64,000 nucleotides of DNA from an uncultured bacterium (lineage in GTDB: Bacteria > Margulisbacteria > WOR-1 > CAZGTC01), in assembly GCA_964528395.1 (NCBI GenBank), contig CAZGTC010000004.1:26840-90839 (forward strand). The letters are read 5' to 3'. A program made the translations under genes and the position numbers. The notes under the pieces are model-generated. The model saw nothing but the letters and a program-made list of their open reading frames with translations, was not told where the DNA came from and did not search any database. Below are positions 11,264 through 61,120 of this stretch, in pieces (the first letter of the stretch is position 1; each line of letters begins with the position of its first letter).

Positions 11264-11296
11264 AAATGCCCCCTTATTTTTCTTAAACTAAACACG

Positions 11297-11325: not shown

Positions 11326-11349
11326 TTAGCCTTTAACTATCTTCTACTA

Positions 11350-20248: not shown

Positions 20249-20260
20249 GGCTTATCCTTT

Positions 20261-20644
20261 TTAAAAAGGTAAATCATCTGGTGCATCAAATGGGTTTTCA
20301 GCCTGACTGCTTGCTATCCCCGCAGCCTTATCCATATTGCGGAAACTCCGGGCAACCACTTCAGTTACCCAGCGTTTTTCCCCGTTTTCAGCATCAAAAG
20401 AACGGTTTTGAATCCGTCCTTCAACCAAAATTGTGTTGCCATCTTTTAAAGATTCGGTAGCAAGTTCTGCCAAGCGCTCCCAGGCAACAATATCAATATA
20501 ATCAAAAGTAGGATTTTGGCCTTCTTTTATAAACCGCTGAACTGCCAAGCGGAACTTGGTCATGGGAGATCCGCCTTCAGTATAACGGCTTTCCGGATTG
20601 CCGGAAACTTTGCCGATTAGGATGATGCGGTTCAAGCTCGCCAT
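20261..20644 (-). CDS. Single-stranded DNA-binding protein, second tandem paralogue.
   Basis: LNRIILIGKVSGNPESRYTEGG OB-fold. Tail ending in DDLPF. Confidence 0.75.
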   Translation of the reverse strand: MASLNRIILIGKVSGNPESRYTEGGSPMTKFRLAVQRFIKEGQNPTFDYIDIVAWERLAELATESLKDGNTILVEGRIQNRSFDAENGEKRWVTEVVARSFRNMDKAAGIASSQAENPFDAPDDLPF

Positions 20645-30658: not shown

Positions 30659-30699
30659 AAAAATCTTTTTTCAAAAATGAAATTTTATCTTGTTTTGCA

Positions 30700-30718
30700 C
30701 GATATATATATGGGAAGA
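30700..30718 (+). promoter_or_regulatory. Locus motif instance 1: CGATATATATATGGGAAGA upstream of the 385-aa gene.
   Basis: One of five copies of CGATATATATAT, here 37 nt upstream of the ATG, with an AGGGGA RBS closer to the start. Confidence 0.5.
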
Positions 30719-30749
30719 CAAAATCCTTTGATAAAACAGGGGAAAAAAT

Positions 30750-31907
30750 ATGAGCATAAATCCAATAGGTTCAACATATACAATCCCTAGAAATCTCCAA
30801 GCTCCTTTGGAACGTATACAAAGGCGCACTAATCTTCAAAGAACTTTAATATTAAAAAATGTTTTGCCCCAAGCAATTCAAGCCGCGGTTTTGACTTCTG
30901 CTGGATATATTGGATTTGGAGAAACACTCTTTACTATTGGACTCGGAAGTGCTGCCACCCTAGCCATTGCAACCCGCTGGATAAGATGGGGCCTTCATAG
31001 CATTGATAGATGGTTAATCGGAAAAAGGCTGGCCAAAGAAATTACCAGAACAGAAGAAGCTGGGATTTTTTCCGAAGCCCGTCCAATTCTATCTCAATAC
31101 ATTTTTAGTTTTGATGATTTATCTTTTCCCAAATATTTGGGCACTAAACCCTATGATTACTTAGCCAAGCGGGGAATAACTGCCAAGATAAGAGAATCTC
31201 AAGCTATAGATTTTAACGACTCGCCTCCCCCACAACTGACTGACATTTCCAAAACAGAGGAAAAAACTATTCCTGGCGCAAATTTAATCAAGCTTTTACA
31301 AGGGTCCCCATCCCAAAAAATTCTTGCGTTAAAAAGCCTTATCCGCGGAAGTTCTTTTGGCCTGCATGAGCTTTTAGATGAATTTGCCATAAAACTCGCT
31401 TCTTTCTTAGAAAACACTGATAATGAAATACAAATACAATCCGTCGAAGAACTTACTGTAAAGGATAAGCCCCTTATTCTCCAACAATTGGGATTGTTGA
31501 TCCAAGGCATAGAACAACGCAAGCTAAAAGAGGGGATCAGCGAAGCAGAAGATCAAAAGCGGCAAGCACTATGCGCACTACAAAATGAAATTAATGCACT
31601 AAAAGATGGAACTCCTTTTGAAACAATCTATCGATTATATTCTAATATCCTAATTTTAAACCAGGGGATCAAAATGGGTACTCCTTATGAAATAGACGGC
31701 AAAACACTTATTTCCATAGAAGATATAGTTACAGAACTTGAAAAAAATCCTACTTTGTATAATCCAACTATGGTAAAGGACGCAAAACAAGCTTTTTTTG
31801 AACTTAAAAAGATCGTGCCCAAAGGAGCAGCTCCTGCTGCAACAGGGACTCCAGAGGCTGCTTCAGGGGGAGCTCCAGCTGCTCCTAAAAAAGCCGGGGG
31901 TAAATAA
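30750..31907 (+). CDS. Hypothetical membrane-associated protein with Ala/Pro-rich C-terminus; first gene of the giant-protein locus.
   Basis: One hydrophobic segment (AVLTSAGYIGFGETLFTIGLGSAATLAIA). C-terminus PKGAAPAATGTPEAASGGAPAAPKK. Preceded by the locus motif. Confidence 0.4.
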   Translation: MSINPIGSTYTIPRNLQAPLERIQRRTNLQRTLILKNVLPQAIQAAVLTSAGYIGFGETLFTIGLGSAATLAIATRWIRWGLHSIDRWLIGKRLAKEITRTEEAGIFSEARPILSQYIFSFDDLSFPKYLGTKPYDYLAKRGITAKIRESQAIDFNDSPPPQLTDISKTEEKTIPGANLIKLLQGSPSQKILALKSLIRGSSFGLHELLDEFAIKLASFLENTDNEIQIQSVEELTVKDKPLILQQLGLLIQGIEQRKLKEGISEAEDQKRQALCALQNEINALKDGTPFETIYRLYSNILILNQGIKMGTPYEIDGKTLISIEDIVTELEKNPTLYNPTMVKDAKQAFFELKKIVPKGAAPAATGTPEAASGGAPAAPKKAGGK

Positions 31908-31909
31908 AA

Positions 31910-34900
31910 ATGAGACCTTTCTTTAATCAATTTACTAGGCCAAACCTTTTTAATCCATATGGTTTAGGATCACATAACATTGGGGAAGGGATTGGACGGC
32001 TAGGGAGAACCCTTTTATTTCCACGTGTACATTGTAAAGGAGAAGGCGGCCCCCCCAGTGCCCCTTCTGCCCCAGCTGCCGGAGTTTCTACCGCCCCTGC
32101 GCAAGCCGCTGCTGGCAAAGTCATTCAGAGCGCCTTATTCATTGAACGAGCTCGGTTGTTTAGCCTCTTAGATCCTACAAATAAAGACTTAACCCAACAA
32201 ACCAGAATTTTAGAAGGTTATGCTCATGGGCAATATCCAATATTCGACAATGTCTTAGCCGGAAACACATTTCAAACGCTTATTTCTCACAACAGCCCGC
32301 TAAATCAATCTGGTTTGGCTGAAAAAGCACTAGATCGATTAGGCGGACTAAATCTTAGGAACAGGGAAATTAATCCTGCGGATGCTTATATGCAAATGAA
32401 AAGCATTGAAAGGATCTTAAATGAAACCCTTTATAATCGCTTGCTCATGTTTTTAGAAAATGGTACTCTCGCAACCCAAAGAGGCCTTCTCTTGTTTTTT
32501 TATCAATATGCCCTTATTACCAAGGGGGAAGAAAATGTAAAAATTAATGTCCCCCCAGAGCTAAAAACCGCTCTTGATAATGCAAAAAAAACCATGGCCG
32601 CAGAATGGGCACAAGAAAATGAACGCCTAAAAGCCATGGGCCAGGCTCCTGCCACACAAACTGATTTTGCACGTTTGATCTACGATGAAGGGAAGTTATC
32701 TCTTGCCAATATTATGGCAAAGCCCGGCGAAGCTGGAAGAGAAATGAGGACCATTGACCTTGAAACTGTTCTGGACGCCTTTAGAAATGAAAAAAGCAGC
32801 GACTTAATTCGCTCGGCCTTAAGGCATGCCCTGGCCAGTATTTTTGCCGGCCAAGAAAAAGATATGTTTCTCCAAATAACTACATCCCTTGAAGCCAATC
32901 AATTAGAGCAGCTTCCGCTTACCTTAAAAATAGCTCGTATTCTGTTTCAAACTCTTAATTCGCCAGAAAAAAAATCAAGACTCTACTCTCTTATATTTAA
33001 TTTTTATAGGGATAATCCTAACTCCCCCCTGAAAGAAGAAATACTAGATACCTTGGTCACTTTTAAATATGACGCCTTTGTCCATCCTAGCCGAAAATAT
33101 GCCGAGGACATGATCCAGCAAGAACTAGATCCTAATTCTCAAACTCCGCTGCGCAAAGCTGCAGGATCCAAGGCCGCAGAACCAATCGTCCTTCCCAAAA
33201 ATCGCGACCTTATGCTATATGTAGAAAAAATCTGTAAGGAATTAGGCGGGGAGCTTGTCAGCGCTATTTGCACTTTGGTAAAAGAAAAAAACATGCCAAA
33301 ATCACTTAGGGCAACTAATGGAAAAGCCGTAGAATCAACGGATATTTATAATAAATCCCAAGATGAGCTAAGCCAAAGGATTAGGGCTTTGAGCCAAACC
33401 GCGCAAAGGGTTTTTTGGGCTGCAGCTGATACCAGCGATCCGGATAAATTGCCAAACGAAGTATCTATGATCGGGAATTTGGATGCTTTTATTGAACTTA
33501 TCCAATTTATGATAAAAGAATTCAAGTTTGACCCCAGCTTACCAGGAAAAGTCATGTTGAGTAAGGCTGGCGCTGGAAGCCGCAGCGGCTTATTGGGCCT
33601 AGCTGAGGCCATTGACAAAGGCACAATTCGCTTAGGAAGAACTGCTTTTGAAACTATTTCCACTTTTGCTGCGGTCATTGTTTTATCACAACTGCCTGAC
33701 CATGGCAAAGGCTGGATCGTATTTACAGGCTGCGACCAGATGCTGATTCCTTATGGAGGAGACAATTTAACAATTGGAAGACATAAGGTTGTTGATTATG
33801 AAAAAAACACGGGCACAAAACTTCCGGGATTAATTATTACAACCGTTAGAGCTGAAGTCGAAGGATCTACCAATGCTGATGATTATAAATATTTATGCGG
33901 ATTAGGCAATGTTATTATTACTTCCAAGGACCTGCGCACAGATGTTGATGAAAAATCCAAAACTCCCGAAGGCCTGCGCCTAGCTTTTGTAGAAAAACCC
34001 AAAACCGTAGAACTTTTAAGGGAACAATTAAGAAAAGCCACTCTCTTTTCTGTTTTGGGAAAAGAAAACAATTGGGGTTCCAACTTAAAAAATTTTCTTA
34101 AGGGTAAAAACTTAGGGGGGGTTCCAGTAGAAGATTTATTTCTTGCCTGCGCTCAAGATTTAAACGTTACGCTCACATATTCCGGAAGTTTGAGAGATTA
34201 TTTTCTTGAAGTAGCTCGCGGGGAAAAAACCTTAGGCAATCCTAAACTGAATGCATTGGCTAAAGGCTTTATGTACACTTATATTAATACCTTTGTTATG
34301 TCCGCACGAGTAGAGATTGCAAAAATGCTTACCGAAGTATATGAAATGCCAACCGAAACAGATTCCTCCAGCATTTTAAGAAAAATATTTACCCAAGATC
34401 CTTATTTTGATTGGTCTCAATTGCTTATGGAAGCCATGGTCATTGGAAAAGACGAGCACCGCTATAAACCCGCAGCTAAAATACAAGGGGAATGGGAAAA
34501 TTTAAGGAAATGCAGCCAAAGATATGCCCGTATTTTATCTGAAATAGATGCTGATTTTGCAACAAGCCTTAATTTGCCCGCAAATTTTGATCTACCAGAA
34601 AATATGCCAACATCAATAAGCCCAGAACTAAACCAAAAGATAGAAGCTTTGGTTTGTCTAAGAGCCTGGGAAATTCGCAAAAGAAAAACCGAGGGATGGC
34701 AAAAGGTTGAACTAAATGACTGGATGCGGCTCTGGTGGGCAGCGCGAAAAATAGAACATTCCGCCAACGGACTAGGCGTAGCAGTAGCAGATTATTTTTC
34801 TGATACTGGAACCGTGGTAGAAGTTTTTAAGGTTTATTTTCAGATATTTTTTGATGAAAATAGAGCTGATCCTTATTTGAATAAAGACTATGCAGAAATC

Positions 34901-35548
34901 CAGCGCTTTTCACAAGGGCTTAGTACAACCCCAATACAAGGGCAAAATCGCTTTGTAAACTTTGAAAAAGGCATAAAATTTGGAGGAGAATCTCTAAATG
35001 AAGAACAGCTTTCACGCTTAAATACCTCAACTGATCCAATAACCATAAATGGGGTAACAATCCAAAATCCTAGATTTACTTATATTGGAGAAGGAACCGA
35101 GCTTGCGCAGGGTACAACCGTAGAACCATGGTCCATTCTTTTGCAAGCTAAATTGGGACAATCTACCCATATCCCTTCTTACTGTATTATAAATGGCGCT
35201 AATATCCCAAAAGCTCAAGTGGTATTTCCTGAACAAGAGCTTCCAAAAATTAAAGGGAAAAATGAGCAGGAACGAATTGCGCGGCCAGATGAAATAAAAC
35301 CCGGACACATGAGAATTATCTATGACCAGACATATGAAGGAGAAAAAACTCTGGTAATTGAGCCAAGTACTTTACATGGAAGCATTGAATTAATGGATAG
35401 CTTAAGGGCTCAAGCTTTGCAAGACATTAACGACGCAAAAATAAAAGGCCAAGTCCCCGGAGTTGGCATTGGTTTTGACCATTTAGCCAGCGCAGTACAA
35501 GCCTTTCCTAGGAGATTGCCCAGGGCAATTGATGGGGGGAAAAAATAA
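31910..35548 (+). CDS. Giant hypothetical protein (1212 aa), Ala/Pro-rich N-terminus, possible nucleotidyltransferase-like glycine loop.
   Basis: Long uninterrupted ORF starting 2 nt after the previous stop. KAGAGSRSGLLG resembles the G-x-G-(T/S)-R loop of sugar nucleotidyltransferases, a weak match. Confidence 0.45.
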   Translation: MRPFFNQFTRPNLFNPYGLGSHNIGEGIGRLGRTLLFPRVHCKGEGGPPSAPSAPAAGVSTAPAQAAAGKVIQSALFIERARLFSLLDPTNKDLTQQTRILEGYAHGQYPIFDNVLAGNTFQTLISHNSPLNQSGLAEKALDRLGGLNLRNREINPADAYMQMKSIERILNETLYNRLLMFLENGTLATQRGLLLFFYQYALITKGEENVKINVPPELKTALDNAKKTMAAEWAQENERLKAMGQAPATQTDFARLIYDEGKLSLANIMAKPGEAGREMRTIDLETVLDAFRNEKSSDLIRSALRHALASIFAGQEKDMFLQITTSLEANQLEQLPLTLKIARILFQTLNSPEKKSRLYSLIFNFYRDNPNSPLKEEILDTLVTFKYDAFVHPSRKYAEDMIQQELDPNSQTPLRKAAGSKAAEPIVLPKNRDLMLYVEKICKELGGELVSAICTLVKEKNMPKSLRATNGKAVESTDIYNKSQDELSQRIRALSQTAQRVFWAAADTSDPDKLPNEVSMIGNLDAFIELIQFMIKEFKFDPSLPGKVMLSKAGAGSRSGLLGLAEAIDKGTIRLGRTAFETISTFAAVIVLSQLPDHGKGWIVFTGCDQMLIPYGGDNLTIGRHKVVDYEKNTGTKLPGLIITTVRAEVEGSTNADDYKYLCGLGNVIITSKDLRTDVDEKSKTPEGLRLAFVEKPKTVELLREQLRKATLFSVLGKENNWGSNLKNFLKGKNLGGVPVEDLFLACAQDLNVTLTYSGSLRDYFLEVARGEKTLGNPKLNALAKGFMYTYINTFVMSARVEIAKMLTEVYEMPTETDSSSILRKIFTQDPYFDWSQLLMEAMVIGKDEHRYKPAAKIQGEWENLRKCSQRYARILSEIDADFATSLNLPANFDLPENMPTSISPELNQKIEALVCLRAWEIRKRKTEGWQKVELNDWMRLWWAARKIEHSANGLGVAVADYFSDTGTVVEVFKVYFQIFFDENRADPYLNKDYAEIQRFSQGLSTTPIQGQNRFVNFEKGIKFGGESLNEEQLSRLNTSTDPITINGVTIQNPRFTYIGEGTELAQGTTVEPWSILLQAKLGQSTHIPSYCIINGANIPKAQVVFPEQELPKIKGKNEQERIARPDEIKPGHMRIIYDQTYEGEKTLVIEPSTLHGSIELMDSLRAQALQDINDAKIKGQVPGVGIGFDHLASAVQAFPRRLPRAIDGGKK

Positions 35549-38500
35549 TGAGTATTATTAATAAAATAACCAGACTTTTTAAATCTACTTCTTCAGTGAC
35601 CAGCCCAAATACTATGGGGCCAAGAACCCAGCTAGCACTGGTTATGCTAAAACCCGGGGCCTTGGTAGCCTCACAATTTGTAGCCCAAGAACTAATCTCA
35701 AAGCTAGAGAAAATCCAAGGGGTATCCTCTATCCAAATAATCTGCCCTGAAATTTTTCCTTTTACTCCAGAAAAAGCGGATGCCTTTTATAAAAAACCTT
35801 TGGAAGGCAAACCTCCTGCATTAAAAAAAGAAATTGTTTCCCGCATGTCTGCAACTTCCGAAAACCCGGGTGAAGCCCAAACCCCGGTGATTGCTTTTAT
35901 TGTACGAGCAACTGTCGCCGGAGAAAAATCCCTTTATGAAATATTAAGGCAGCCAGATGTTATTGGCCCAACCTGGCCCATGGTTGGAGCTGGCGAAGGG
36001 AATATCGAAGTGGATGGGAAAACCATCCCAGCTTCTTTGGAAAAAATCAATGAGAGCTTGCGCCGCCAAGTTGAAGCGAGGTTTGGATTTAGCCCAACTA
36101 TTCGAGGCAATCCTAAAAATGCTTTTAATTTTATCCATTGTTCAGATAGCGAAAGAAATGCCTGGGAAGAAATCTCCCATCTTTTTAATCGTTCCGACCT
36201 GGAAAAATGGGGAATAGACAAAAAAACCCTGGATGCTATTTATCCAACCCCTCAAAACCCTAACCCTGTCAGCTACCCTTTCTTTAATTTAAACGGGCAA
36301 ATAACCATAAGCCAGTTTGCTTCGCCTCCAACTGATTTAGCTTTATTTATGCATGCTCAAAAGATTCTAGATAGAATAAATGCCCAACGCCAACAAACTG
36401 GACTAGCGACTTATCGAGATTTTAGTGCCCAAGCTCTTGAGCATATCTTATTGGATTGGGCAAGATGGTATCAAGTTCAAAACATTCCTTCCCAGCCCTT
36501 GGATAAAAATATTGCTACTTTAATCGGGCCAAGCGGATCCGGAAAAACATCCGTGGCTATGGCCTTATCCCAAGGCTTAGTAAACCTGGACGCTCTTAGT
36601 CCCAAAGGGCAAATTGTTCTTTATAATTTTCTACTTAAACATAAGCTTATTGATAAATTAGGAATAGTGTCAAAATATTTTATAGAGAATTTTGCTGGCA
36701 ACAAAGAAGAAGCATTTTTAAAATTAGTTGAGGGAGACAATACCCTGCAGCTAAACTGGAAAAAACATCTCTATTCTTATTTAAATAAAACAACTCAAGA
36801 AGCTGCGCAAGACTTTCAATTGGTTACACTTTCTACCAGCCGGGAGGGAGGAATTGAACCTGGAGAAGAAAGCCTAGGCACTAGATTTGAACACCTTATA
36901 AACATGGGCAGCTTCAAAGCGGTAGAACATTTTAGCGATGCAACCGGCAATATAGGCTATGGCATAAAAAAAGAACCCCTTCGCACTGCCCAAGAAAGAA
37001 ATTCCGGAATGATACTTATTGTAGCTGGGCCAGAAATAGCCAGACAACTAAATAGTTATACACTTTATATACAACCAGCTACAAACATTCAAGAATTTGA
37101 AGAAGCCACTTTTGAACGCTTAAAACAACGCGAACAAACCACGGGTCGCAAAGCCAAGGATAGGATTGCAGCTTCGGTTGCTCAATATAAAAATCTCGAA
37201 AGATTAGACTACGATTTTACAATAAACAATCCCTTAACTACAGAAGAACAACAAAAAAATCCTGATCCAGTTCAAATTAACCGTGATTTTTGCGCACTCG
37301 TACAACAAGCTAAAACAACATTACAAAATTTATCTGGAGCTCCCCAAGGGCTAGGAAGCGTAGCTGTTGATGCCGGAGCTTTTCCTCCTCGCGCCGCTCT
37401 CTTGCGCAATTCCCTGTCTGGGCTTTTGGATAAAGTTCAAAAAACTGCAACTGCAACCTTATTTAATCCTGAAGGCGAACCATTCAAGGTTTTACGAGCT
37501 TTCTTGCTTGAATGTTTCCAAATGAATGAATCTCGAACCATCATGAGCAAAAAAGAAAAAAGCGATGGGACAAAACCGCTCGAAAGCAATATGACTGCGG
37601 AGCAAAATCTCGTAGAATCTACAACTGGCCATATCCTAGGGGTAGTTGGCATGGCAAAAGCGGTTGCCACTTTGCCAGAAGTTAATTTATATGCAGCCAA
37701 AGGCCCTGGGTTTGCCAGCCTTTGCTTAGGAACCGAAGATCTTCATCGCGAACGCGAGCGAAATAATCTTCAAGCAATTAATAATCTTCTGGCCGCGAAG
37801 GCCGTTACCCTCGCCTATTTTTCAGAGTTTGGCTCAATAAAGGCAAAAGAATATTGGAACATGCTTATCAAGGAGAAACAGATTAAACCAAATGGCCAAA
37901 TTTCAAAATTTGAAGGAAAGTTAGAAGCGTTTAAATTACCAAAAGACATTTCTGAAGAGATAAGAATTAAACTTTTCAATATTTTACTACGCGCTCAAAT
38001 CATAAAAGAAGAAACCCTTTTGCGTTTAGCCCTCCTACATGACATCGGAAAAATGCAAGAACCGGATAAGCTCTATGGCCATGATCGCCAAAGCGCACAG
38101 CTTATTGCTGATTGCCGTTTGTTAAAAAATATTCCTTTTGATCCAGCTAATCCAAAAAAAGTAGATGACTTAAAAAGCAAATTAGAAAAAGCTCAAGCCG
38201 AGGGTAAAAGCCCAGAAGAAATCGATGATATAGAACGTGAATTCTATGCTGTCCAAAGCGATGAAATAGAAGCTAACCGCACAATTTTTACCTTGGCGAT
38301 TAAACACCACCATGCAATTGGCGGGACCTTTGAAGGCGGGGTTTCAACCCATCATTTTGGGGAAATTTTCCGCGATTCAGAAGTAAAGGGAATTTTAGAG
38401 GAGCCGGGTTGCGATTCTATTGGGCGAGCAACCTTGCTTATCAACTACCTTGCTGCTATAACTCTGTTGGATATAGGCGGGCATGGCCTGCTTTCAAACT

Positions 38501-39231: not shown

Positions 39232-39249
39232 GACAAAACTGAAGTTTTT

Positions 39250-40743: not shown

Positions 40744-40767
40744 GACTATCCCTCTAATTATATATCG
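40744..40767 (-). promoter_or_regulatory. Locus motif instance 2 (minus strand): CGATATATAATTAGAGGGATAGTC immediately before the ATG of the PurA-like gene.
   Basis: Reverse complement of 40744-40767. GAGGGA RBS 5 nt before the ATG. Confidence 0.55.
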
Positions 40768-40855
40768 GTATTTTTAGCCAATAATTTCAAGCTTAAATAT
40801 TTATTTTTCATTTAAAAAAAATATATGCTGCTCTGAAATTTTCGGCCTTTTTTGT

Positions 40856-40880
40856 CGATATATATATGAGAGGGAAATTT
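40856..40880 (+). promoter_or_regulatory. Locus motif instance 3: CGATATATATATGAGAGGGAAATTT immediately before ATG 40881 of the 2168-aa gene.
   Basis: Same architecture as instances 2 and 5. The divergent intergenic region 40744-40880 carries one copy for each direction. Confidence 0.55.
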
Positions 40881-47372: not shown

Positions 47373-47385
47373 GTTAGAAAAATTT

Positions 47386-51357: not shown

Positions 51358-51381
51358 GTGCAAGTTATAGAGATACCGTAT

Positions 51382-51404
51382 CGAATATATATATACTTAA
51401 GGAG
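51382..51404 (+). promoter_or_regulatory. Locus motif instance 4: CGAATATATATATACTTAAGGAG upstream of the 1881-aa gene.
   Basis: TATATATAT core followed by an AAGGAG RBS, 11 nt before ATG 51416. Confidence 0.5.
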
Positions 51405-51415
51405 ATGAAAAGTTT

Positions 51416-54400
51416 ATGCCAGTACCAGCACCAATAACCGGAAGTAGTTCTTCCCATGATATTTGTAAAAAAGTCTATCTTGGGAATGTATACGAAGAAA
51501 TAGGAAATATTGATTCTCGCGCTTTTAGAAGCTCTGCAACCGACGTGGACAATCAATATAATACGCAACAAAACATTGCAGGCATTGAACTCCAAATATC
51601 AAAATTAAATTGTAAAAGAAACCTAAATGATATTGCCTACAAAAAAAATGCTTTTCTTGCTTTTATGGTGCTTATCCAGTTGCTCGATCGCTTGGCAAAT
51701 CTAACCACAGATACAAAAGAAAAAAAAGCCCTGTACGCAAAATGCGCGGCTTTGTCCGCGGTTTTCTGTCGCAAAAGCATTCCAGCCGGCATTGTGGCAG
51801 ATCAAGCCACCCAAAAGAACCTAATTCCTCTTCTTCGCTTGTTAATTAATAAGGGGTATAAAGAACCAGAAAACAAAGTTCGAGAAGAAATAGAGTTTAT
51901 TTATAAACAAGCGCTTTCATATCTTGGTTCTGATAATGAAATGATCAAGTCCGGAGAAAACTGGTTTGCAAAAAGAAGTGGGGCTTCAAAAACTGCTCCC
52001 AAGCTTAAAAGATATACCTATGATTACACCGTAGGATACCGTACACGTTGGATGGAAATTCTAGCCCAAAAACCTGCTCAAGCGCATCTACTGCTCACAA
52101 AAGACCCTGCCCAGTATAAGCAAGTCCTATTGGATTACCTTGTTTATTTAAAGAGAGTAGCTACTCCTTCCCCCACAATAGCACAAAGATTAAACGAGCT
52201 TTATACGCGGATGGTTTCTGCCATAATAAACGCATACACAAACACTACAAGTACAACTTATGCCGCAAAAAAGAAAGAAATTTTAGCCATTCTTGGCAAA
52301 GACATAAAAAATCGAACAGCAGAGGAAAAAACCACTCTTCTACATATATTTAACCCGGGGCTTATTGGAGGATTCAAATTAAAATATATTGAAGATCAAG
52401 ATGGATTAACCCAATATGACGCAAAAGTCAATCGAGGATGGGTATTGGCAAAATCGCGCAGCGAAGAAGACCTAAACTTAGCCGTAAAACTAGCTATTGA
52501 AAATTTAAATACCGGTCATATTGAAAGAAAAACGCATGATTTTATAAAGATCCTTATCGAAGCTTTAAATAATCTCATCTTAATAAAAGGCAAAACCAGC
52601 CCCAAGTCTCTAGAATTAAGACAAATTTTAGCCTTGGTTCTAAAGCTCTCGGCAAATTCTATTCCCAACTTACCCGCCTGGGTAACTATGCTAGCAAATG
52701 TAGCCAAAAAAAATGGATCAAACAATTATTATATTATGGTTGCTCAAACCCGCCTTGACCTTAACCGTATTCCGGCTTATTTTTCTGATTTAGACCCTGA
52801 CCGCAAGCCAGATGAAATCGTCAAGCAGGGCCTCTGGATTGCCGGCCTTTTATCTTCTATTGCTGATACGCTTAAAAAAGCCGGGAGAGAAAAGGATATT
52901 TATGACCCTTTCTTTTTTGCCGCAGTTAGGGAATATCTCAATTGCCAAATTCCCCTTATCCGGGAAATACAAAAATATCCGCAAAAAGCATCTTTATACT
53001 TAAGCTTGGCTTCGGCCTACCATGCCATGGGAGACCAGCACGAAAAAGATGGGGACAAAGAAACTGCCCGCTTATGCTGGAAAAGAGCCAAAGCCATTTG
53101 CCAGGCTCTTTGGGATGGAATACAAATATCTTCTTCTTTATTTACAGCCCAAGGAGATATTTTACCAGATATTTCTGCGCTTATGCGAGGAATAATCATC
53201 CATCGGAACGCCTTATTAAAATCTTTAAAAAATGGTAATTCCTCAAGCAGCGCCCCGGGAAAAGTCCCGGGAAAAATTATTTACGAATTCTTTCATAGTT
53301 TTGCCGAAGCCATCCGAAAAGTTGATCTAGTCTACGACAGAGAAAAATCTAAAAAGAAAAACTTAAAGTTTATTGATACGTCTTTTCAGACGGCTAAAGG
53401 GTTTTATTCGCTAGCTAAAAAATCGATAGATCCAGATGTTATTTCTCGAGCTAACGCTGGCGAAAAAGAAGCTTTTCGCGCCCGTATTCGCGCTTATATT
53501 TTAGCGGGAAAATTTGAAGAAGCCATAAAATTATATCCTCCAGAAATTATCAAAACCTTTACCCACCTATCAGCCGGAGGGACCCCTAGTTTTGAAAACC
53601 TTACTCTGGCCTTGGGAAATATTACAGAACTCGCCTGGGCCTATGCTGAAAAAGGCCAGTACGACAGCCGTTATCTAGGAAAAGAACATCAAAAAACCAG
53701 TTATGTAAACTTCTTAAAATCTGCGGCTATTTATCATGCCCTCTTATATGGCAAACAATTATTACCGAAGATCAACGATCAATCTTTTAAAGAGATTATT
53801 AAATTAATTATAAAATTCAAAGCTCATTTTGATAATCCTCTTTTGCTTCTAACTCTAAAAATCTCAAAAGAAGAACTTTATATGCGATTAGGCGATTTAA
53901 CCCGCGATGCTGCCCAGAAAACCCTTGCTTTTAATATGGCTAATAAATTATATGTTTTTGCAGGTAAACAATACCAAGCTGCTTTAGCCCTGCTCCAAAC
54001 TAGTAATGGAAATGGCCTTTCAAAAGTAAAAATCGCGGCCGCCCAAACCGGCTTGGCAAAAACTTATATTTTAAGGTCGGAATTATCCCTTAAATTAGGG
54101 CAACCCAAAATAGCAAAAAAATATTTAGCATTTGCCAGGCATTTCGCTAAAAAGGGCCTTTTAGCTCTTACCCATAAAGATATAGACACTCGAAAAGAAG
54201 GAAAGCTTATCTTGGATGCTTTTTCTACCTATAGCTGGGCACTCGGAAAAAGCGGCGGGTTCGCAGAAAAACAAGGGGATATTTCAGGCGCGCACAAATA
54301 TTTTAAACTTGCACGCACCTTAAATAATGCTTTTGTCCATAATCTTAAAAGTCAGAGCCTCCCCAAAGAAACTAAAGTTTTAGCACAAATTGCTTCTACC

Positions 54401-57061
54401 CTCAAAGAACAGCTTCCTTTTAGGCAAACCCTTATCCACGATCAGCCGCAGGAATATTTTTCTCTAGACTTGGCCAAGCTTTATAAAGCTTCCAGTAAAG
54501 GTTACAAAAACCCGCAGGAAAAAATAAGGGCTCTAAGCCGAGCGATTTATATATTTGAAACTATTATTTCACAATCCAAAGACATCCTTTTTGCTTATAA
54601 AATAAAAGAAGCACAAGTAGAATTGGCCGAAGCCTTAACTCTGCGGGGCAAATACTATGAAGATACCCGGCGCGATGATCTAGCAGAAAAAGACTATCAA
54701 ACTGCCCTGCAAATTTGCCTTGCATCAATTAAAGACCAAAAACCTATCAAAACATTGGCCCAATCCACGGTTTATCTAAAAGGCATATCGGCTTTAATTT
54801 GGGCACTTAAGCACTATATGGACCTAAAAAAATATACTGATGTTGCTTATTCTGACATTGGCAGCCTTTTGCCTATCGCGCTTTTTAACTGTTTAACTAC
54901 TGGCAATATTTCTCTTAGCCCAGAATTACGTACATTTATTATTGCCAAACTAAACATAGCTGAAGCAGAGATAAACAGTCTTTTTGGTTTTTTAAAAACT
55001 TATGCTCAAACCTTTGCCCAAAATAAGGCCCGCATCCTAGAAGCTGCGGATTTAACTGAAAACAATCTAAAACTCGGGTTTATTGGCTTGCTGATTTCCG
55101 CAAAAAAATATTCGGATGCAGCCAACATGTATAAAGACTATGTCATTCCACAATTAAAAGAATTAGCTAAAATCCCTCCGGCAGAGTTTGAGATTATTCT
55201 TGAGATCACTTCCGCCCTGGGGGATATCTATTGCTATAAATTTGAAGATTTCAAAAAAGCCAAAGAATATTATCTTAAGACTTTAGAAATTTTTACTTCT
55301 TATAAAAAGAAATATACTGATCTACCAGAAGAAATAAAACTTGTAGAACAAAAAGCTATTCTTGGCCTGGCCAAAATAGATATAGAAAATAACAATTACA
55401 AAGCCGCAGAAAAAAAATATTGGAAGGGCATTAATCACTCTAATTTTAACCAAACATCAGGCAGCCTTCCCTTGAAAGCACAAGAGGTCCTTATTCGGGC
55501 TTATTTAGGTTTAGGCGGCTTATATTTACACCTTAAGCCAAATCATACCAAAGCCCTAGAAATGTATAAAAAAGCGCGTCAGTTGATCTCTTTGCTTTCG
55601 ATCAAAAAGGCCTACCGCTATTTGGTCCAGGCTTTTCTTGAAAGTGGAGATGTTTATAGGCTATTGAACCAGCCAAAGCAAGCCATTAACTTTTATCAAG
55701 ATGGGCTAAAACTATTAACCGGGCAAGGCATCAATGAAGAAGAAGATATTGAATTAGAAACCCTTATTAGGGCTGCACTGTCCCAAGCTTTGGCACAAGA
55801 AGGAAAAGTTGATTTAGCCTTGCAAGAAAACAAAAAAGCCAGAGAGCTTATACAAAAACTCCTAAGCAGACCGTATGGAAAAAAATATCAAAAGACTTTC
55901 CGTCGTATTATTGGGGATACCTCAAATATTTGGGATGAAGCTTCGCGCTGTCCCGGTTCGTTTAGAATTGGCGGGGCTTTTAGCTATAATCAGAGCAATC
56001 GCCTTTCGATCTTGGGAAATGCCTTTCAGGGCCAAGCAGGGCCATCTGGTGAAGGCTTTATCTCTTATCAAATCTCTAGAAGATTTAGCCTTGCCCTAAA
56101 TTATCAGCCGGATATTCCTCAAGCTTTTAATATCTTTAATCCTGGTTCCAGTGCCGGCTCTCCACAAAATCTAGCAAGAATGGAAAGCAACTACAACCAT
56201 TCCATAGGATTATCCTTAAACTACAAATTAGAAACCCCTTCTTATAACCTAAGCTTGAATCCTTTTATCCAAAGCCATATATTTTCTTATAGAATTTATG
56301 AGCATAGTTTTTCACAGGATTATCGCTTTGTTGATCAGCTTCCTGGCTATCCGTTGGAACATCCTAATACCCTGCTTAGCTTTAGCTTGGGCGGGATTAT
56401 TAGTGGGGATTGGAAGCTTAAGCTTCCTAATCAATTTTTGTTATTGATCGGGGGACAAGCCAAAATCGCTGGATCTTTTGTTTCTGGGCCAGGCATAGGC
56501 AATGAAAGTTATTTAATCTCCCAACTAGAAAATGCTAAAACTAAAAATCCTCAAGCAACTAAAGAAGCTTTGCCCGGGCCAGCCTATGCCACTGCTAGCC
56601 GATTAAAAAATACTCATCTTTTTACCTGGAACCTAAATCCCGGAGTTAATCTGGTTTTCCCAGCTTGGGTTGGTCCTATGGGAATTTGGAAAAACTCCAG
56701 CCTAAGACTAGGCTTTTCTTTTGGAGAAGACCCGATTGCCGCTACGCTTAATAACTTTTATCCTATGCGCAATTTACAAAAAGATGCTTCTGGTAAAACT
56801 TGGTTCAAAGACTTGGATAGCTTTCGTATTTCTGGAACAATTTCTGCCAGAACCGACATAACTTTTGGACTGGATTCAAGAATGCGCATTCCAATTGAAT
56901 TTTTGCTTGAAGGCGGAAATTATCTTTATCTGCAGATAACCACAGGTTTTAAATATTATGGGGATATGTGGAATATTTTCCCCTTTATAAGGTATGAACA
57001 GTTTGAGGGGCCGACCGATAGATCTCAGCGTTTTAAAATTGGGGTTGAATTCGGCTTTTAA
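51416..57061 (+). CDS. Giant TPR-rich protein (1881 aa) with a C-terminal beta-barrel-like domain ending in an OMP-type beta-signal.
   Basis: AAGGAG RBS. Long helical-repeat N-terminal 1450 aa. Last ~400 aa are rich in alternating hydrophobic/Gly/Asn/Ser beta-strands. C-terminus is KIGVEFGF, an alternating hydrophobic pattern with terminal Phe. Confidence 0.5.
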   Translation: MPVPAPITGSSSSHDICKKVYLGNVYEEIGNIDSRAFRSSATDVDNQYNTQQNIAGIELQISKLNCKRNLNDIAYKKNAFLAFMVLIQLLDRLANLTTDTKEKKALYAKCAALSAVFCRKSIPAGIVADQATQKNLIPLLRLLINKGYKEPENKVREEIEFIYKQALSYLGSDNEMIKSGENWFAKRSGASKTAPKLKRYTYDYTVGYRTRWMEILAQKPAQAHLLLTKDPAQYKQVLLDYLVYLKRVATPSPTIAQRLNELYTRMVSAIINAYTNTTSTTYAAKKKEILAILGKDIKNRTAEEKTTLLHIFNPGLIGGFKLKYIEDQDGLTQYDAKVNRGWVLAKSRSEEDLNLAVKLAIENLNTGHIERKTHDFIKILIEALNNLILIKGKTSPKSLELRQILALVLKLSANSIPNLPAWVTMLANVAKKNGSNNYYIMVAQTRLDLNRIPAYFSDLDPDRKPDEIVKQGLWIAGLLSSIADTLKKAGREKDIYDPFFFAAVREYLNCQIPLIREIQKYPQKASLYLSLASAYHAMGDQHEKDGDKETARLCWKRAKAICQALWDGIQISSSLFTAQGDILPDISALMRGIIIHRNALLKSLKNGNSSSSAPGKVPGKIIYEFFHSFAEAIRKVDLVYDREKSKKKNLKFIDTSFQTAKGFYSLAKKSIDPDVISRANAGEKEAFRARIRAYILAGKFEEAIKLYPPEIIKTFTHLSAGGTPSFENLTLALGNITELAWAYAEKGQYDSRYLGKEHQKTSYVNFLKSAAIYHALLYGKQLLPKINDQSFKEIIKLIIKFKAHFDNPLLLLTLKISKEELYMRLGDLTRDAAQKTLAFNMANKLYVFAGKQYQAALALLQTSNGNGLSKVKIAAAQTGLAKTYILRSELSLKLGQPKIAKKYLAFARHFAKKGLLALTHKDIDTRKEGKLILDAFSTYSWALGKSGGFAEKQGDISGAHKYFKLARTLNNAFVHNLKSQSLPKETKVLAQIASTLKEQLPFRQTLIHDQPQEYFSLDLAKLYKASSKGYKNPQEKIRALSRAIYIFETIISQSKDILFAYKIKEAQVELAEALTLRGKYYEDTRRDDLAEKDYQTALQICLASIKDQKPIKTLAQSTVYLKGISALIWALKHYMDLKKYTDVAYSDIGSLLPIALFNCLTTGNISLSPELRTFIIAKLNIAEAEINSLFGFLKTYAQTFAQNKARILEAADLTENNLKLGFIGLLISAKKYSDAANMYKDYVIPQLKELAKIPPAEFEIILEITSALGDIYCYKFEDFKKAKEYYLKTLEIFTSYKKKYTDLPEEIKLVEQKAILGLAKIDIENNNYKAAEKKYWKGINHSNFNQTSGSLPLKAQEVLIRAYLGLGGLYLHLKPNHTKALEMYKKARQLISLLSIKKAYRYLVQAFLESGDVYRLLNQPKQAINFYQDGLKLLTGQGINEEEDIELETLIRAALSQALAQEGKVDLALQENKKARELIQKLLSRPYGKKYQKTFRRIIGDTSNIWDEASRCPGSFRIGGAFSYNQSNRLSILGNAFQGQAGPSGEGFISYQISRRFSLALNYQPDIPQAFNIFNPGSSAGSPQNLARMESNYNHSIGLSLNYKLETPSYNLSLNPFIQSHIFSYRIYEHSFSQDYRFVDQLPGYPLEHPNTLLSFSLGGIISGDWKLKLPNQFLLLIGGQAKIAGSFVSGPGIGNESYLISQLENAKTKNPQATKEALPGPAYATASRLKNTHLFTWNLNPGVNLVFPAWVGPMGIWKNSSLRLGFSFGEDPIAATLNNFYPMRNLQKDASGKTWFKDLDSFRISGTISARTDITFGLDSRMRIPIEFLLEGGNYLYLQITTGFKYYGDMWNIFPFIRYEQFEGPTDRSQRFKIGVEFGF

Positions 57062-59230
57062 TTAAAGGCTCTCAAGCCAATTTTGGATGGCTTTTGCAGA
57101 AATTATTTGGCCAGCACACAAAGCCATTAATATATTGATCCCGGCTCTGTCAATCTTTTTCAAGCTCTGGATTGCTTGGACATTCGCAGGGGATAAACCC
57201 TCGACTGTAGATAATTTCCATAGGATAATCGCCCGCATAGCTGGCCCAATCACATAAGCCTTAAATTCTTGTTTTAAGTGTTTTATAAAGTTATCCGAGG
57301 ATTTATCGCTTGAAGCAAAAAACTTTAATAAAGAAGGAAGCTTCTTATGGCTATGGGTAAAATAACTAACTCCCCGCCCTACAATAACCCGTACCAAATT
57401 AAAAGCTTGTTCCGTTAGCTTTGTGGCTTGTTTAGGTTCTTTTATTGCCACTCCTTGCTTAACCAATTCCTCTCGCGCAGAAAGGGCGGATAAAATCCTT
57501 CTTTTGTCGGTAAAAATCGGAACCACTTCTGCTGGCCCTTGTAAATCAACTTGCAACCCTTGTTTTTCAGCCCCTTGCTTGGCTAAAAAGCCTGATATTT
57601 GGGTATTATGGTAATGGACCTCTGGGGAACCTAAGCTAGCTGGACCATAAATTAACCGGCTTCTTTTTGCTATTGGCTGAAAGGCAGGCTCTCCTTGAGT
57701 AGCAATTTCTGTTAAGCGGGCATTTGCTTGCACCGTTCGTGTTTCAAGGTCAATTGGCAGAGTTTCACTTCCTGCAAAAGAAATAGAAAAAACTATCCCT
57801 ATCTGGCCGCTAGCTCTATCCGGCAAACCAAAGCGTTTTTCATATCTCTCATCTTGCCAGCTTGCCACAAACTTAGCATTAAATAGATTAAAAATATTTT
57901 GCAATCCTATCCACCCCATAATTTGATGGTTTTCTCCAACTAATAAACGATTCCATTGATATTGCATGCCTACATCCAAAATAAGCCGTTGATCAATCCT
58001 CCATAACCAAGAAGCTCCTATTTCGAATGGAGTATTAGTTTTTTCCAGCTGTAATGGAACATGGAGGGAAACATATAAATCATGGCGCGTAGCCAAAGGA
58101 TAAAACAATTTTGCATACAAACCATGAGAAAGATCAAAATTAAGAGCCTGGTTTTGGCCGCTTAAATCGCTAACCACGCGGCTAGAAGCCCTTAACTGCC
58201 ACCCCAGCTGTGCGATAGCTGAACCCAAAGTTAATCTTAACCCAAGATCAGCCTTAAATTCTAGGTATTCTTTGTTCTTTTCAAAACTGCCAACCCTAGT
58301 TTCAAACCCTCCCGCTATTCCTAGGTTGCGTAAAACTTTTATAGAGCTAAAAGGCGCCCATCCAGCATTGAGGCGTACTTCACCATAGCCCCCGACCCCT
58401 AACCCCAGCCTCTCACCCCCGTTATAACTCAAACTCAGGCCAAAAGAAGGGTCTCCGCTAAAAAGCTTATTGGGTAAGCCATACAGGGCAAGCCCAATCG
58501 AACCATCGGTTACTGGCTGAGCCTTGAAACGATGCGCAACATCCCCCAAAAAGCGCAAGGTCAAACTATAATTCTGGGTTTGTGCTATTCTCCAATCAAA
58601 AGTTGTGTTCCCTCCAATAAAAATACTTGCCGGATTATCCGAAAGAATAACTCCCCCTTGCAGCTCTAAGTCTAGATTAAGTCCTTTACCACGCAAAAAA
58701 TCGTGAGCCTTAGTAAAAGGGTCTGTTGTAGGCATTCCCCCAGCCTGACTAAGAAGGTTTGCAAATAAATCTTTATATTTTTTTTCAAAATTAAAAATAA
58801 AGGCTTTTTTCTCTCCGCACAAAAGCTGAAGAATTCTATCTGGTTTTATCGGGACGTTTGGGGATGCAGGATTAAAACCTATTTGAGACTGTGTTGGAAG
58901 AGACAATTGCCTTGCCAGAACAACCAACAAATCCTGTAATTTTTGTTTAAAAGTAAGGTTAAAAGCCCCAAGTTTTTGTCTAAATAATCTTTGGATGCTT
59001 TGATCCTTTATCAAATGAGAAAATAATTTTAAAATTTTTCCCTGTAATTGAGAATTACGTTGTATATCGGTATCTTCATGAGATCCCAATAATTCTAAAG
59101 CTTTGACAACCAAAAATAAGCTCTTTAAAAGATTTGCCTGCGCTGGAGCTGTGGCCGGCAAAGTCGTCGCTAGCCGGATAGGTTTAAATCCTTCTAGATC
59201 ACAGCTTTCATTCCAAAATGTAGTACTCAT
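57062..59230 (-). CDS. Hypothetical protein (722 aa) with a central beta-barrel-like region and a helical C-terminal region.
   Basis: aa ~180-480 show amphipathic beta-strand periodicity similar to the C-terminal domain of the 1881-aa protein. No obvious signal peptide. Likely co-transcribed with the upstream 596-aa gene. Confidence 0.45.
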   Translation of the reverse strand: MSTTFWNESCDLEGFKPIRLATTLPATAPAQANLLKSLFLVVKALELLGSHEDTDIQRNSQLQGKILKLFSHLIKDQSIQRLFRQKLGAFNLTFKQKLQDLLVVLARQLSLPTQSQIGFNPASPNVPIKPDRILQLLCGEKKAFIFNFEKKYKDLFANLLSQAGGMPTTDPFTKAHDFLRGKGLNLDLELQGGVILSDNPASIFIGGNTTFDWRIAQTQNYSLTLRFLGDVAHRFKAQPVTDGSIGLALYGLPNKLFSGDPSFGLSLSYNGGERLGLGVGGYGEVRLNAGWAPFSSIKVLRNLGIAGGFETRVGSFEKNKEYLEFKADLGLRLTLGSAIAQLGWQLRASSRVVSDLSGQNQALNFDLSHGLYAKLFYPLATRHDLYVSLHVPLQLEKTNTPFEIGASWLWRIDQRLILDVGMQYQWNRLLVGENHQIMGWIGLQNIFNLFNAKFVASWQDERYEKRFGLPDRASGQIGIVFSISFAGSETLPIDLETRTVQANARLTEIATQGEPAFQPIAKRSRLIYGPASLGSPEVHYHNTQISGFLAKQGAEKQGLQVDLQGPAEVVPIFTDKRRILSALSAREELVKQGVAIKEPKQATKLTEQAFNLVRVIVGRGVSYFTHSHKKLPSLLKFFASSDKSSDNFIKHLKQEFKAYVIGPAMRAIILWKLSTVEGLSPANVQAIQSLKKIDRAGINILMALCAGQIISAKAIQNWLESL

Positions 59231-59231
59231 A

Positions 59232-61022
59232 TTAAATCCTTTTCCATCCCAGCATAGCCAGCAAAGTTAAGAATTGATTGTAGTATCTATTAGCATCTTG
59301 ATACTCCCCTCCGCAATAGGCTGGAAGTCCTCTCCGACAAAGAGCGCTAAGGCGTACATGGAATTTTACCGCTAAGCGTTGTGCAGTTTTTTTGGGCCCC
59401 TCAGTCAAAACTTTGGCTAAAGCCTTAGCTCCTGCATAATACATAGCCACCGCCACTTGGTTATTCCAGCTTGCCATAATAACATTGTGAGGCTCTTTGC
59501 CTTGCATAACCAAGTTTAAAGCTTGGATCGCTTTTTGCCTCAAGGCTTGGTTCCCTTTTTGAGAAAGTACATCTTGAGCCAAGCGCCAAGGCACGCGAAT
59601 TGATTCTTTGCCGTTATTCCAAGTGCGGCTATATTTATTTGTCCATCCTGGCCTATGTTGGTCTTTGGGGATTGCAAAACTTAGGGTCCCATTTGGGTTT
59701 ACAGTTACCACAATCCAGTCTGGGATAATCTTGGGCCCCGTTTGATTTTGATAAAGAGGAGATTTTAATACTTGCGTGATTAAGGTATAAGCATCTTGTG
59801 CCAATTTGCTCCAAGAATTTCCCCAAGCCCGATAATATCCTGTAGCCAAATAAGAAAGATTAACGAGATAAGTATTGAGCTGATTAGCTTTTGCCAAAGA
59901 AAAGTGATATGGCGTAAGAAGGTGAAAAGTGTTTCCATTTGATAGTTTAATTTTTACAACTGCATCATGCCATAGGTCGTTTTTCATTTTATTTAAAAGC
60001 TGGGTACATAAGTGGCTTAGTAAAATTTTAGAGCTTGGATTACGCGGGTCTTTCACCATTGCGTCCGTCCATATTTTAGTTGTTTGCAGATTATGTAAAG
60101 CTATCTGCAGTGCAAAAACCATGTCTTGGTTTGCGTCGGTTGCGAAGTTTTTATTTGCCGCTGTCTCCCTTCTTGGTTGAGCAGGATTTGAGACAAGCCA
60201 AGCTGGCCTTCCATTCTTTCCTGCAGCGATAAAGATCTTTACCAAGCTGACTAAAGATTGATAAAACAACTCTTGTGGAGCAAAAGTAATAATAGAACTA
60301 TCCCTAAGCCGTTTTTTATAGTTTTTCCGCCCTCTCATAGCTAAGAAAAGCATTAAATAAGCTAAGCCTTCGGTATGGTTTTGGCCTTGTCCTTCTGATG
60401 GGTCATTTATGTAGACTCCTTGTAATCCTCCAGCAAATGAACTCAGTTTTAAATATTGGCGTAAAACGGTCTGGCTAAAGATGGGATCAATCAATGTTTG
60501 AAAATCGCGACTTACACTCCCCAGCATATGGACCTTTCCCTGTGCTTTAAGCAGAGGCCGAGCATCTAAGGAGATTGGCGCTGGCGGATTTAAAGGCGTA
60601 ACTATATCAAGGAGAGTTTGCGCTCTTTTCTCTGGATTGGCTTTTTTCCAGGCTAAAATTAGGGCGCGAACAACCCAAGCTTGATTATATAAAAAAATTC
60701 TTTTTGGGTTTTGTTTTGTTATGTTTCTTAGAATTACATAATATTGTTTTCTGATATCCTCTAAAGAAACTGAATTAAATTTTATCTTGTATTTTTCAAG
60801 AATTTTCAAAATTAGATACGACAAATGCTGATATGGCCCGATTGGTTCGTCTAAACTAGCTAATATTTTTTGTTTTTGTTCTTCTGTACATAATGTAATA
60901 TTATGTTTTCTAAGCATATTTGAAATTTGCTGCGGGGTTTTTTCCCTTATATCTACAGAGGAAGAAAGAGTACCCTCGCTTAAAAACAAAGAAGACATTG
61001 CAGCTAAATGGTTTATATACAT
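59232..61022 (-). CDS. Glycoside hydrolase family 8-like protein with an N-terminal extension.
   Basis: HTEGLAYLM matches the GH8 TSEGQSYGM proton-donor motif. FATDANQDMVFALQIA resembles the GH8 PROSITE signature A-[ST]-D-[AG]-D-x2-[IM]-A-x-[SA]-[LIVM]. Preceded by the locus motif and a GAGGGA RBS. Confidence 0.45.
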   Translation of the reverse strand: MYINHLAAMSSLFLSEGTLSSSVDIREKTPQQISNMLRKHNITLCTEEQKQKILASLDEPIGPYQHLSYLILKILEKYKIKFNSVSLEDIRKQYYVILRNITKQNPKRIFLYNQAWVVRALILAWKKANPEKRAQTLLDIVTPLNPPAPISLDARPLLKAQGKVHMLGSVSRDFQTLIDPIFSQTVLRQYLKLSSFAGGLQGVYINDPSEGQGQNHTEGLAYLMLFLAMRGRKNYKKRLRDSSIITFAPQELFYQSLVSLVKIFIAAGKNGRPAWLVSNPAQPRRETAANKNFATDANQDMVFALQIALHNLQTTKIWTDAMVKDPRNPSSKILLSHLCTQLLNKMKNDLWHDAVVKIKLSNGNTFHLLTPYHFSLAKANQLNTYLVNLSYLATGYYRAWGNSWSKLAQDAYTLITQVLKSPLYQNQTGPKIIPDWIVVTVNPNGTLSFAIPKDQHRPGWTNKYSRTWNNGKESIRVPWRLAQDVLSQKGNQALRQKAIQALNLVMQGKEPHNVIMASWNNQVAVAMYYAGAKALAKVLTEGPKKTAQRLAVKFHVRLSALCRRGLPAYCGGEYQDANRYYNQFLTLLAMLGWKRI

Positions 61023-61047
61023 ACATTATCCCTCTATATATATATCG
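61023..61047 (-). promoter_or_regulatory. Locus motif instance 5 (minus strand): CGATATATATATAGAGGGATAATGT immediately before the ATG of the GH8-like gene.
   Basis: Reverse complement of 61023-61047. Almost identical to instance 3. Confidence 0.55.
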
Positions 61048-61120
61048 TAATTTTTGGGGTAAAATTTCACCTTTTACACAGAATTTATCCGCGGACAGGG
61101 GTAAAATTTTGCTTGTTTTT

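Follow-up and report, generated by a model that had tools for sequence, protein, structure and literature searches.

The question raised by this locus is what kind of signal stands at the head of its genes. The stretch of DNA analyzed here (the window, 64,000 nucleotides [nt] of an uncultured bacterium of the WOR-1 lineage of Margulisbacteria; contig CAZGTC010000004.1, positions 26,840 to 90,839) holds at 30700-61047 a block of roughly 30 kilobases (kb) containing very large genes. An earlier note on this DNA had described five copies of a short motif followed by GAGGGA and ATG, one at each apparent transcription-unit start, and had proposed a dedicated promoter or a translational operator restricted to the locus, with its giant proteins and PurA-like enzyme. 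We find that four of these copies are real and that they share a bipartite element of about 34 nt with two conserved blocks, TGAAATT(T/A)T and CGATATATA(T/A)AT, separated by 13 nt. This element is probably the central part of a two-block promoter that RNA polymerase recognizes with the help of an alternative (non-housekeeping) sigma-70-family factor, and its distribution is best read as that of a lineage-wide regulon rather than a locus-specific one.

We number the five reported copies S1 to S5 in window order. At S1, S2, S3, and S5, TGAAATTNT is followed after exactly 13 nt by CGAT, and each copy is oriented toward a gene start (4/4). The earlier note had recognized the downstream half and the ribosome-binding site but had missed the upstream half. 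Searching the window for CGATATATATAT with at most one mismatch gives six matches at four places, where shuffled sequences would be expected to give 0.17. A weight matrix trained on 95 sites from other genomes assigns the scores listed below; the next best site in the window reaches 14.2 bits, below the maximum of 16.7 bits among 20 shuffles, so that there is no fifth copy anywhere in the 64-kb window and the element is absent outside the locus, as the earlier note had observed.

30678-30711, plus strand: S1, candidate promoter with TGAAAT at 30678-30683, T-tract to 30686, CGATAT at 30700-30705, and AT tract to 30711 (33.3 bits); AGGGGA at 30738-30743 and ATG at 30750, with a predicted transcription start near 30712 and a leader of 38 nt. 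Sequence (C of CGAT at 30700): TGAAATTTT-atcttgttttgca-CGATATATATAT, 38 nt, ATG.
40756-40789, minus strand: S2, candidate promoter of the PurA-like gene with TGAAAT at 40789-40784 and CGATAT at 40767-40762 (34.1 bits); GAGGGA at 40754-40749 and ATG at 40743, with a predicted start near 40755 and a leader of 12 nt. Sequence (C of CGAT at 40767): TGAAATTAT-tggctaaaaatac-CGATATATAATT-AGAGGGA-tagtc-ATG, with CGATATATAAT at the CGAT block.
40834-40867, plus strand: S3, candidate promoter divergent from S2 with TGAAAT at 40834-40839 and CGATAT at 40856-40861 (36.4 bits); GAGGGA at 40870-40875 and ATG at 40881, with a predicted start near 40868 and a leader of 13 nt. Sequence (C of CGAT at 40856): TGAAATTTT-cggccttttttgt-CGATATATATAT-GAGAGGGA-aattt-ATG.
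51359-51415, plus strand: S4, look-alike in the 58-nt gap before the gene for a protein of 1881 amino acids (aa), with CGAATATATATAT at 51382-51394 and AAGGAG at 51399-51404 (4.2 bits).
61036-61069, minus strand: S5, candidate promoter with TGAAAT at 61069-61064 and CGATAT at 61047-61042 (46.1 bits); GAGGGA at 61034-61029 and ATG at 61022, with a predicted start near 61035 and a leader of 13 nt. Sequence (C of CGAT at 61047): TGAAATTTT-accccaaaaatta-CGATATATATAT-AGAGGGA-taatgt-ATG.

At S2, S3, and S5, GAGGGA and the ATG come directly after the downstream half, with GAGGGA 5-6 nt before the ATG exactly as had been reported, and at S1 the ATG lies 50 nt past the C of CGAT behind an AGGGGA of its own. 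The remaining reported copy, S4 (51382, plus strand), was rejected as a family member: it keeps its low score even when the spacing is allowed to vary, and it has no recognizable upstream half. Transcription of the 1881-aa gene behind it probably continues from S3, or else relies on an internal promoter that is weak at most. The exact position of S3 also bears on a gene call, in that the start of the longest open reading frame (ORF), at 40866, falls within the S3 AT tract, and the start behind GAGGGA is 40881, where the public gene call for the 2163-aa protein likewise begins.

The window supplies its own standard of comparison for these sites. Its left half is ordinary chromosome (rnf, miaA, hisD, uvrC, rpsF-ssb-rpsR-rplI, pyrH-frr-uppS-cdsA, gidA, skp-lpxD), and in its intergenic regions pyrH has the promoter TTGACA-17-TATAAT, with similar canonical promoters before AAA_14, skp, a toxin–antitoxin pair, and two secreted orphans. 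A generic sigma-70 scan gives no site at S1, S2, S3, or S5, and in the 30-50 kb portion of the window sigma-70-like matches are no commoner than in shuffled sequence (33 versus 41 +/- 7). The conserved hexamer CGATAT has a G at the position where sigma-70 promoters have their key A, and the motif sites lack the housekeeping arrangement of a -10 hexamer with A at position 2 and T at position 6, 16-18 base pairs (bp) past a TTGACA-like hexamer. With canonical promoters in the left half and none at the motif sites, the window holds two promoter classes, and the orphan-gene locus therefore uses only the second, non-housekeeping class. The proposal of a dedicated promoter-type signal, distinct from the window's housekeeping promoters and heading the units of the locus including the PurA-like gene, is thus upheld. 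Two peculiarities were seen in the left half itself: the promoters at 8982-9109 and 11264-11349, which belong to the paralogous secreted orphans at 8118-8981 (minus strand) and 9959-11263 (minus strand), have (ATT)n repeats between TTGACA and TATGCT, the spacers being 20 bp and 17 bp long, an arrangement characteristic of phase variation by repeat length; and a tandem ssb pair lies at 19856-20644 (minus strand) within the rpsF-ssb-rpsR-rplI operon.

We examined the distribution of the element beyond the window by scanning one genome per species (185,579 species, 596 gigabases) for TGAAATTNT-N13-CGATATATA, which gave at least 118 stretches. Among the matches listed, at least 65 stretches lie in at least 31 assemblies named Candidatus Margulisiibacteriota, Saganbacteria, or WOR-1, and at least 26 more lie in further metagenome-assembled genomes that have the same extended signature, several per genome; the other 27 of the 118 are single matches in unrelated, mostly AT-rich taxa, roughly as many as chance would give. 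Our own estimate of the chance expectation is about 70 for 17 specified bases in 596 gigabases, and Margulisbacteria, with 38 representatives in one preprint's set, make up well under 0.1% of species representatives. The Saganbacteria lineage, which NCBI classes within the Cyanobacteriota/Melainabacteria group, includes a locus (L118) that is about 69% identical to window 2289-6504; the window most likely belongs to this lineage. Matches in viral contigs number 11 and are mostly due to chance. Two related IMG/VR contigs (L131:783-813 and L133:3832-3862) carry a copy of the lineage's type, TGACGATATATAtaaATG, followed at offset 12 by an ATG; these contigs may represent phages of the lineage or may have been misclassified.

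Positions left free by the search are informative about the element itself. Counting from the C of CGAT, conservation in the 95 sites of the lineage's type (hereafter, Margulis-type sites) extends to an upstream tract rich in A, to AAA at -8 to -6, to a T (74%) at -3 and a G (57%) at -2, to TAT at +9 to +11, and to a purine (90%) at +12 followed by G at +13. When metagenome contigs were scanned independently, with nothing fixed past CGATA, at least 120 stretches were obtained and (T/A)ATATAT-R-G was recovered at +5 to +13, which identifies the AT tract as a genuine conserved feature. In 655 kb of Margulis-type loci, 41 further non-exact sites score at least 18 bits, where shuffled sequence yields none, a density of about one per 16 kb beyond the seed sites; their -10 cores are CGATA(A/T), several of them GCCGATAA.

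Sites this frequent in the sampled loci, with a TG two bases 5' of the -10 block and an A-rich upstream tract as in strong sigma-70 promoters, might be thought to represent a strong version of the lineage's housekeeping promoter, with the TATATAT tract as its -10 box, and one preprint does report that canonical promoter prediction is often incomplete in Margulisbacteria. We consider this explanation quite improbable, since the housekeeping units of the window have near-perfect TTGACA-17-TATAAT promoters without the motif, TATATA as a -10 box would put the TGAAA block about 20 bp away, CGATAT has its G where sigma-70 needs an A, and the downstream genes are depleted in known families (see below). 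The earlier note had named, as grounds against its proposal, an occurrence before unrelated genes throughout the genome that would mark a generic AT-rich -10-like element; this is borne out in part, the element being widespread but not a generic -10 box.

Its spread also bears on whether the copies could be the ends of a mobile or repeated element (a miniature inverted-repeat transposable element, an insertion sequence, or a cassette boundary) multiplied by duplication. Clustering of the copies in an orphan-gene island, and clustering in other genomes too (MEUD01000001 has three sites within 56 kb), would fit such an origin. We nonetheless give it almost no credence: a repeat-family search confines the similarity among window copies to the 28-43 nt of the motif, the spacers differ, all copies face a gene start, conservation before unrelated genes spans at least 31 named assemblies, and PHROG and PADLOC give no prophage or defence-island signal.

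Read as a promoter of an alternative sigma factor, the element makes predictions about where transcripts begin. At 15 of 90 Margulis-type sites, an ORF of 100 aa or more that lacks a ribosome-binding site starts with an ATG at an offset of at most 17 from the C, offsets 12 and 16 being the peaks; these 15 sites would give leaderless mRNAs or mRNAs with 4-nt leaders. At 40 of the 90, a ribosome-binding-site-like tetramer begins at offset 12-16, and at nine loci a conserved RNA of about 75 nt (described below) begins at offset 12. Because of the leaderless ORFs, the fixed-offset ribosome-binding sites, and the start of this RNA, we place transcription initiation at the purine about 12 nt past the C of CGAT. 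The -35 element would then be TGAAAT at about -34 to -29, followed by the T-tract; after a 16-bp spacer, with TG just 5' of the -10 block, the -10 element (T)GnCGATAT would have its hexamer at about -12 to -7 and would be followed by the AT-rich stretch ATATAT. Three of the window transcripts would open almost directly with the GAGGGA ribosome-binding site and reach their AUG after 12-13 nt. If so, the constant position of GAGGGA is explained by a ribosome-binding site at the extreme 5' end of the transcript, and it is this near-immediate succession that makes promoter, GAGGGA, and ATG look like a single motif.

Leaderless and minimal-leader mRNAs are common in Actinobacteria and Deinococcus, and the Margulis-type sites resemble those systems in having a start codon at or a few nucleotides from the predicted start in 15 of 90 cases, as do the window leaders of 12-13 nt in consisting of a ribosome-binding site and spacer only. 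The difference is that the trait is here tied to one promoter class, the housekeeping units of the window having ordinary leaders; when all Margulis-type sites are considered, the ORF start lies a median of 33 nt past the C. The fixed distance between AT tract, GAGGGA, and ATG in three copies could instead point to an RNA-level translational operator, in which TATATAT and GAGGGA act in the mRNA by binding a regulator or by folding. This was one of the two original proposals, and we now regard it as extremely improbable. The conserved block would lie 5' of the predicted start, leaderless ORFs beginning 12-16 nt past the C in other genomes leave no room for an operator, the same motif precedes a non-coding RNA, and the S1 leader differs. 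The predicted 5' ends at the four window sites have no significant RNA structure (z-scores of -1.8 to +0.2 relative to shuffles), and GAGGGA is an ordinary ribosome-binding site.

Which sigma factor might read such a promoter can be approached by comparison with known classes. Sigma-28 (FliA/SigD/WhiG) promoters, TAAAGTTT-N11-GCCGATAA, have the same geometry, with the C of CGATA 21 nt past the first base of xAAAxTTT, share the CGATA core, a T at -3, and a G at -2 (compare tGCCGATAA), and are matched in their -10 element by those non-exact Margulis sites that read GCCGATAA(A). They differ in the -35 element, which is TGAAATTTT in the motif and TAAAGTTT in sigma-28 promoters, and in that the motif has a long AT tract past CGATA. 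The Bacillus promoters of the extracytoplasmic function (ECF) factors sigma-W and sigma-V, tGAAACnTTTt ... CGTA (PMC5758882), provide the other obvious comparison. The likeness here lies in the TGAAA(C/T) -35 element with its adjacent T-tract, the 16-bp spacer, the CG-initial -10 element, and the close adherence to consensus; the -10 element differs, however, being CGAT at all four window sites and CGTA or CGTC in ECF promoters. The density of sites also points to a regulon that exceeds the typical size of ECF regulons, and to our knowledge a conserved TG 5' of the -10 block is not an ECF feature. Our best reading is an alternative sigma-70-family factor whose promoter resembles both the sigma-28 and the ECF types. 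We found no description in the literature of promoters or sigma regulons in Margulisbacteria or Saganbacteria.

Several observations weigh against a sigma factor of this kind. No sigma-factor gene occurs in the window or, within the part of each genome that was sampled, beside any site; searched by tblastn with RpoD, FliA, and RpoE of E. coli, the surroundings of Margulis-type sites show no sigma gene, the only hits being a convergent RpoD-like gene in L231 and the tail of a helicase-like protein in L159. The E. coli FliA matrix gives S3 14.4 bits and S2 11.9 bits, both within the shuffle maximum of 13.8 +/- 2, and no flagellar or chemotaxis genes were found among the motif targets. In the -35 element, AAT takes the place of the AAC that defines ECF promoters. 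Both the start site and the activity of the promoter are read from sequence, the taxonomy of the genomes behind the 26 stretches outside the named assemblies was judged from the motif signature only, and the per-genome site counts from both collection scans are lower bounds. In addition, tblastn detects no flagellin in about 1.6 megabases of fetched loci (about 0.65 megabases of it Margulis-type genome loci), and no autoregulated sigma/anti-sigma operon lies downstream of any sampled Margulis-type site. The L159 protein is itself motif-driven (883 aa; L159:2174-4825, plus strand) and has at its C-terminal end a helix-turn-helix like that of sigma-70 region 4, with about 40% identity to RpoD of E. 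coli over 83 aa.

That the cognate sigma gene was not found would suit an arrangement in which the upstream half and spacer form the site of a lineage-specific transcription factor over a weak promoter, with no special sigma factor, and many spacers do have symmetric T-tract/A-tract arrangements, for example TTTTCCnGGAAAA and ATTTTnnnnnAAAAT. The symmetry is missing, however, in S1, S3, and many other sites, and the strongest conservation falls in two blocks with sigma geometry (a 16-bp spacer, and a start about 7 nt past the -10 block). The -10 block is unusable as a sigma-70 -10 box. This explanation is also less economical, and we judge it improbable.

Given a promoter dependent on an alternative sigma factor, the genes behind it should describe its regulon. 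The 91 first genes past the motif have 36 Pfam families, and 91 neighboring control genes without the motif have 176; the downstream genes are mostly orphans, depleted in known families. Recurrent families behind the motif are radical SAM, protein kinase, TPR, FGE-sulfatase, and GGDEF, and the 25 that were listed out of the 36 include neither sigma factors nor flagellar proteins. There is a modest enrichment of products of at least 1000 aa (4/62 versus 4/408, p = 0.013), and the median product is about 300 aa, so the regulon is not one of giant proteins. None of the 91 first genes is related to the proteins of the window locus. The regulon is therefore a large set of mostly lineage-specific genes, of which the window island is one example. 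The originally proposed restriction to the locus or to giant proteins does not survive, the motif occurring across Margulisiibacteriota and Saganbacteria before unrelated genes of all sizes and before a small RNA. The first 35 residues of motif-driven proteins (Margulis-type loci together with window 30750-61022) are rich in Arg and poor in Asp and Glu, with p of about 1e-6 to 1e-9 relative to internal segments and about 1e-3 relative to the N-termini of window housekeeping proteins; a similarity search found no shared N-terminal sequence motif among the downstream proteins, the bias being compositional only. Two small-protein families were seen in these loci: one of 62-64 aa (...GQFVRVFADMFLKKEAG...), right behind perfect promoter copies in three genomes (L032:6361-6546; L061:2809-2997, minus strand; L085:6742-6933), and one of 94-102 aa (L079, L092).

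The small RNA already mentioned, of about 75 nt, follows the motif at nine loci:

L198:6857-6946, minus strand: small RNA.
L047, L063, L099, L149, L153, L187, L207, and L208: the other small RNA loci.

Its 5' end is rich in purines, CCAUACCUUUCAC and UGUCGA are invariant, and the 3' end carries a U-tract and a terminator hairpin in which 6 of 11 stem pairs show compensatory changes. Usually there is no ORF within 700 nt behind its copies. It matches no Rfam family and is absent from the window; more generally, Rfam places no family directly behind motif sites in the 18 loci scanned, where it finds one 16S rRNA and four tRNAs, none of them site-driven. The CCUUUC stretch of the RNA resembles the anti-Shine-Dalgarno end of 16S rRNA. 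In a further group of loci (L062, L117, L164, L186, L204, L205, and L221, spanning genomes and metagenome contigs), leaders with tandem AUCAGR(R)U-like repeats stand directly past the predicted start. We offer, as a speculation more likely to be wrong than right, that one sigma factor runs a lineage-wide program consisting mainly of fast-evolving lineage-specific proteins (some giant, many with Arg-rich, acid-poor N-termini) made from leaderless or minimal-leader mRNAs, together with a small RNA whose CCAUACCUUUCAC could base-pair with these mRNAs at their purine-rich 5' ends. If true, an accessory proteome, possibly one of the cell surface or of host interaction, would have its own self-contained expression system.

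Within the window, the four sites head the following units:

30750-39231, plus strand: unit 1, headed by S1; a 385-aa membrane orphan, a 1212-aa orphan, and a 1227-aa protein.
39250-40743, minus strand: unit 2, headed by S2; a divergent PurA-family protein of 497 aa with a 43-aa N-terminal extension.
40881-57061, plus strand: unit 3, headed by S3; a 2163-aa orphan, a 1323-aa protein with a GH8/BcsZ-like domain, and the 1881-aa TPR protein.
57062-61022, minus strand: unit 4, headed by S5; orphans of 596 aa and 722 aa.

The PurA-like protein scores 215 bits, against an NCBIfam equivalog cut-off of 402, and was rejected as a PurZ (49 versus 300 bits). Its N-terminal extension is basic, and it is about 29% identical to a PurA-family ORF, assumed here to be the housekeeping PurA, on a metagenome contig that also has a motif site. 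It has no relative at E <= 1e-40 among 5.8 billion proteins, a strict threshold at which weaker relatives are not listed. It is probably not the housekeeping adenylosuccinate synthase. The 1227-aa protein (35548-39231, plus strand) has weak matches to NDK (residues 177-216), to guanylate kinase or a P-loop (about 447-561), and to HD/HDIG (818-857), and with the adjoining PurA-like gene it may form a nucleotide-handling module. The 2163-aa protein has a single relative among the 5.8 billion (35% identical), whose contig is truncated at the 5' end, and no homologue of the locus proteins occurs in the 118 listed genome loci except in L002. PADLOC gives no matches in the locus, and PHROG matches are limited to nucleotide metabolism (the PurA-like protein and the weak guanylate-kinase-like match in the 1227-aa protein); a prophage or defence-island origin of the locus was accordingly rejected. 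Very large unannotated genes are frequent in Margulisbacteria (bioRxiv 10.1101/2023.11.21.568195; PMC11573180), and the window locus, with its proteins of 1212-2163 aa lacking a family assignment, resembles those described in such surveys; the surveys, however, are silent on regulation, and most motif-driven genes are of ordinary size.

Read as we propose, the element is a previously undescribed instance of a well-known type of signal, the sigma-70-family promoter, and this promoter class would be conserved over Margulisiibacteriota and Saganbacteria, heading a large set of mostly lineage-specific genes, with this locus as one of its islands. For Margulisbacteria and Saganbacteria, the uncultivated siblings of Cyanobacteria, a sharply defined promoter class that is easy to scan for gives a first handle on a regulon. 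With it, transcript starts can be predicted and start-codon calls corrected (in the window, from 40866 to 40881); it led to an undescribed small RNA, and it offers candidate strong promoters for future genetic tools in the lineage. It would also mark which unannotated, sometimes giant, genes are expressed together.

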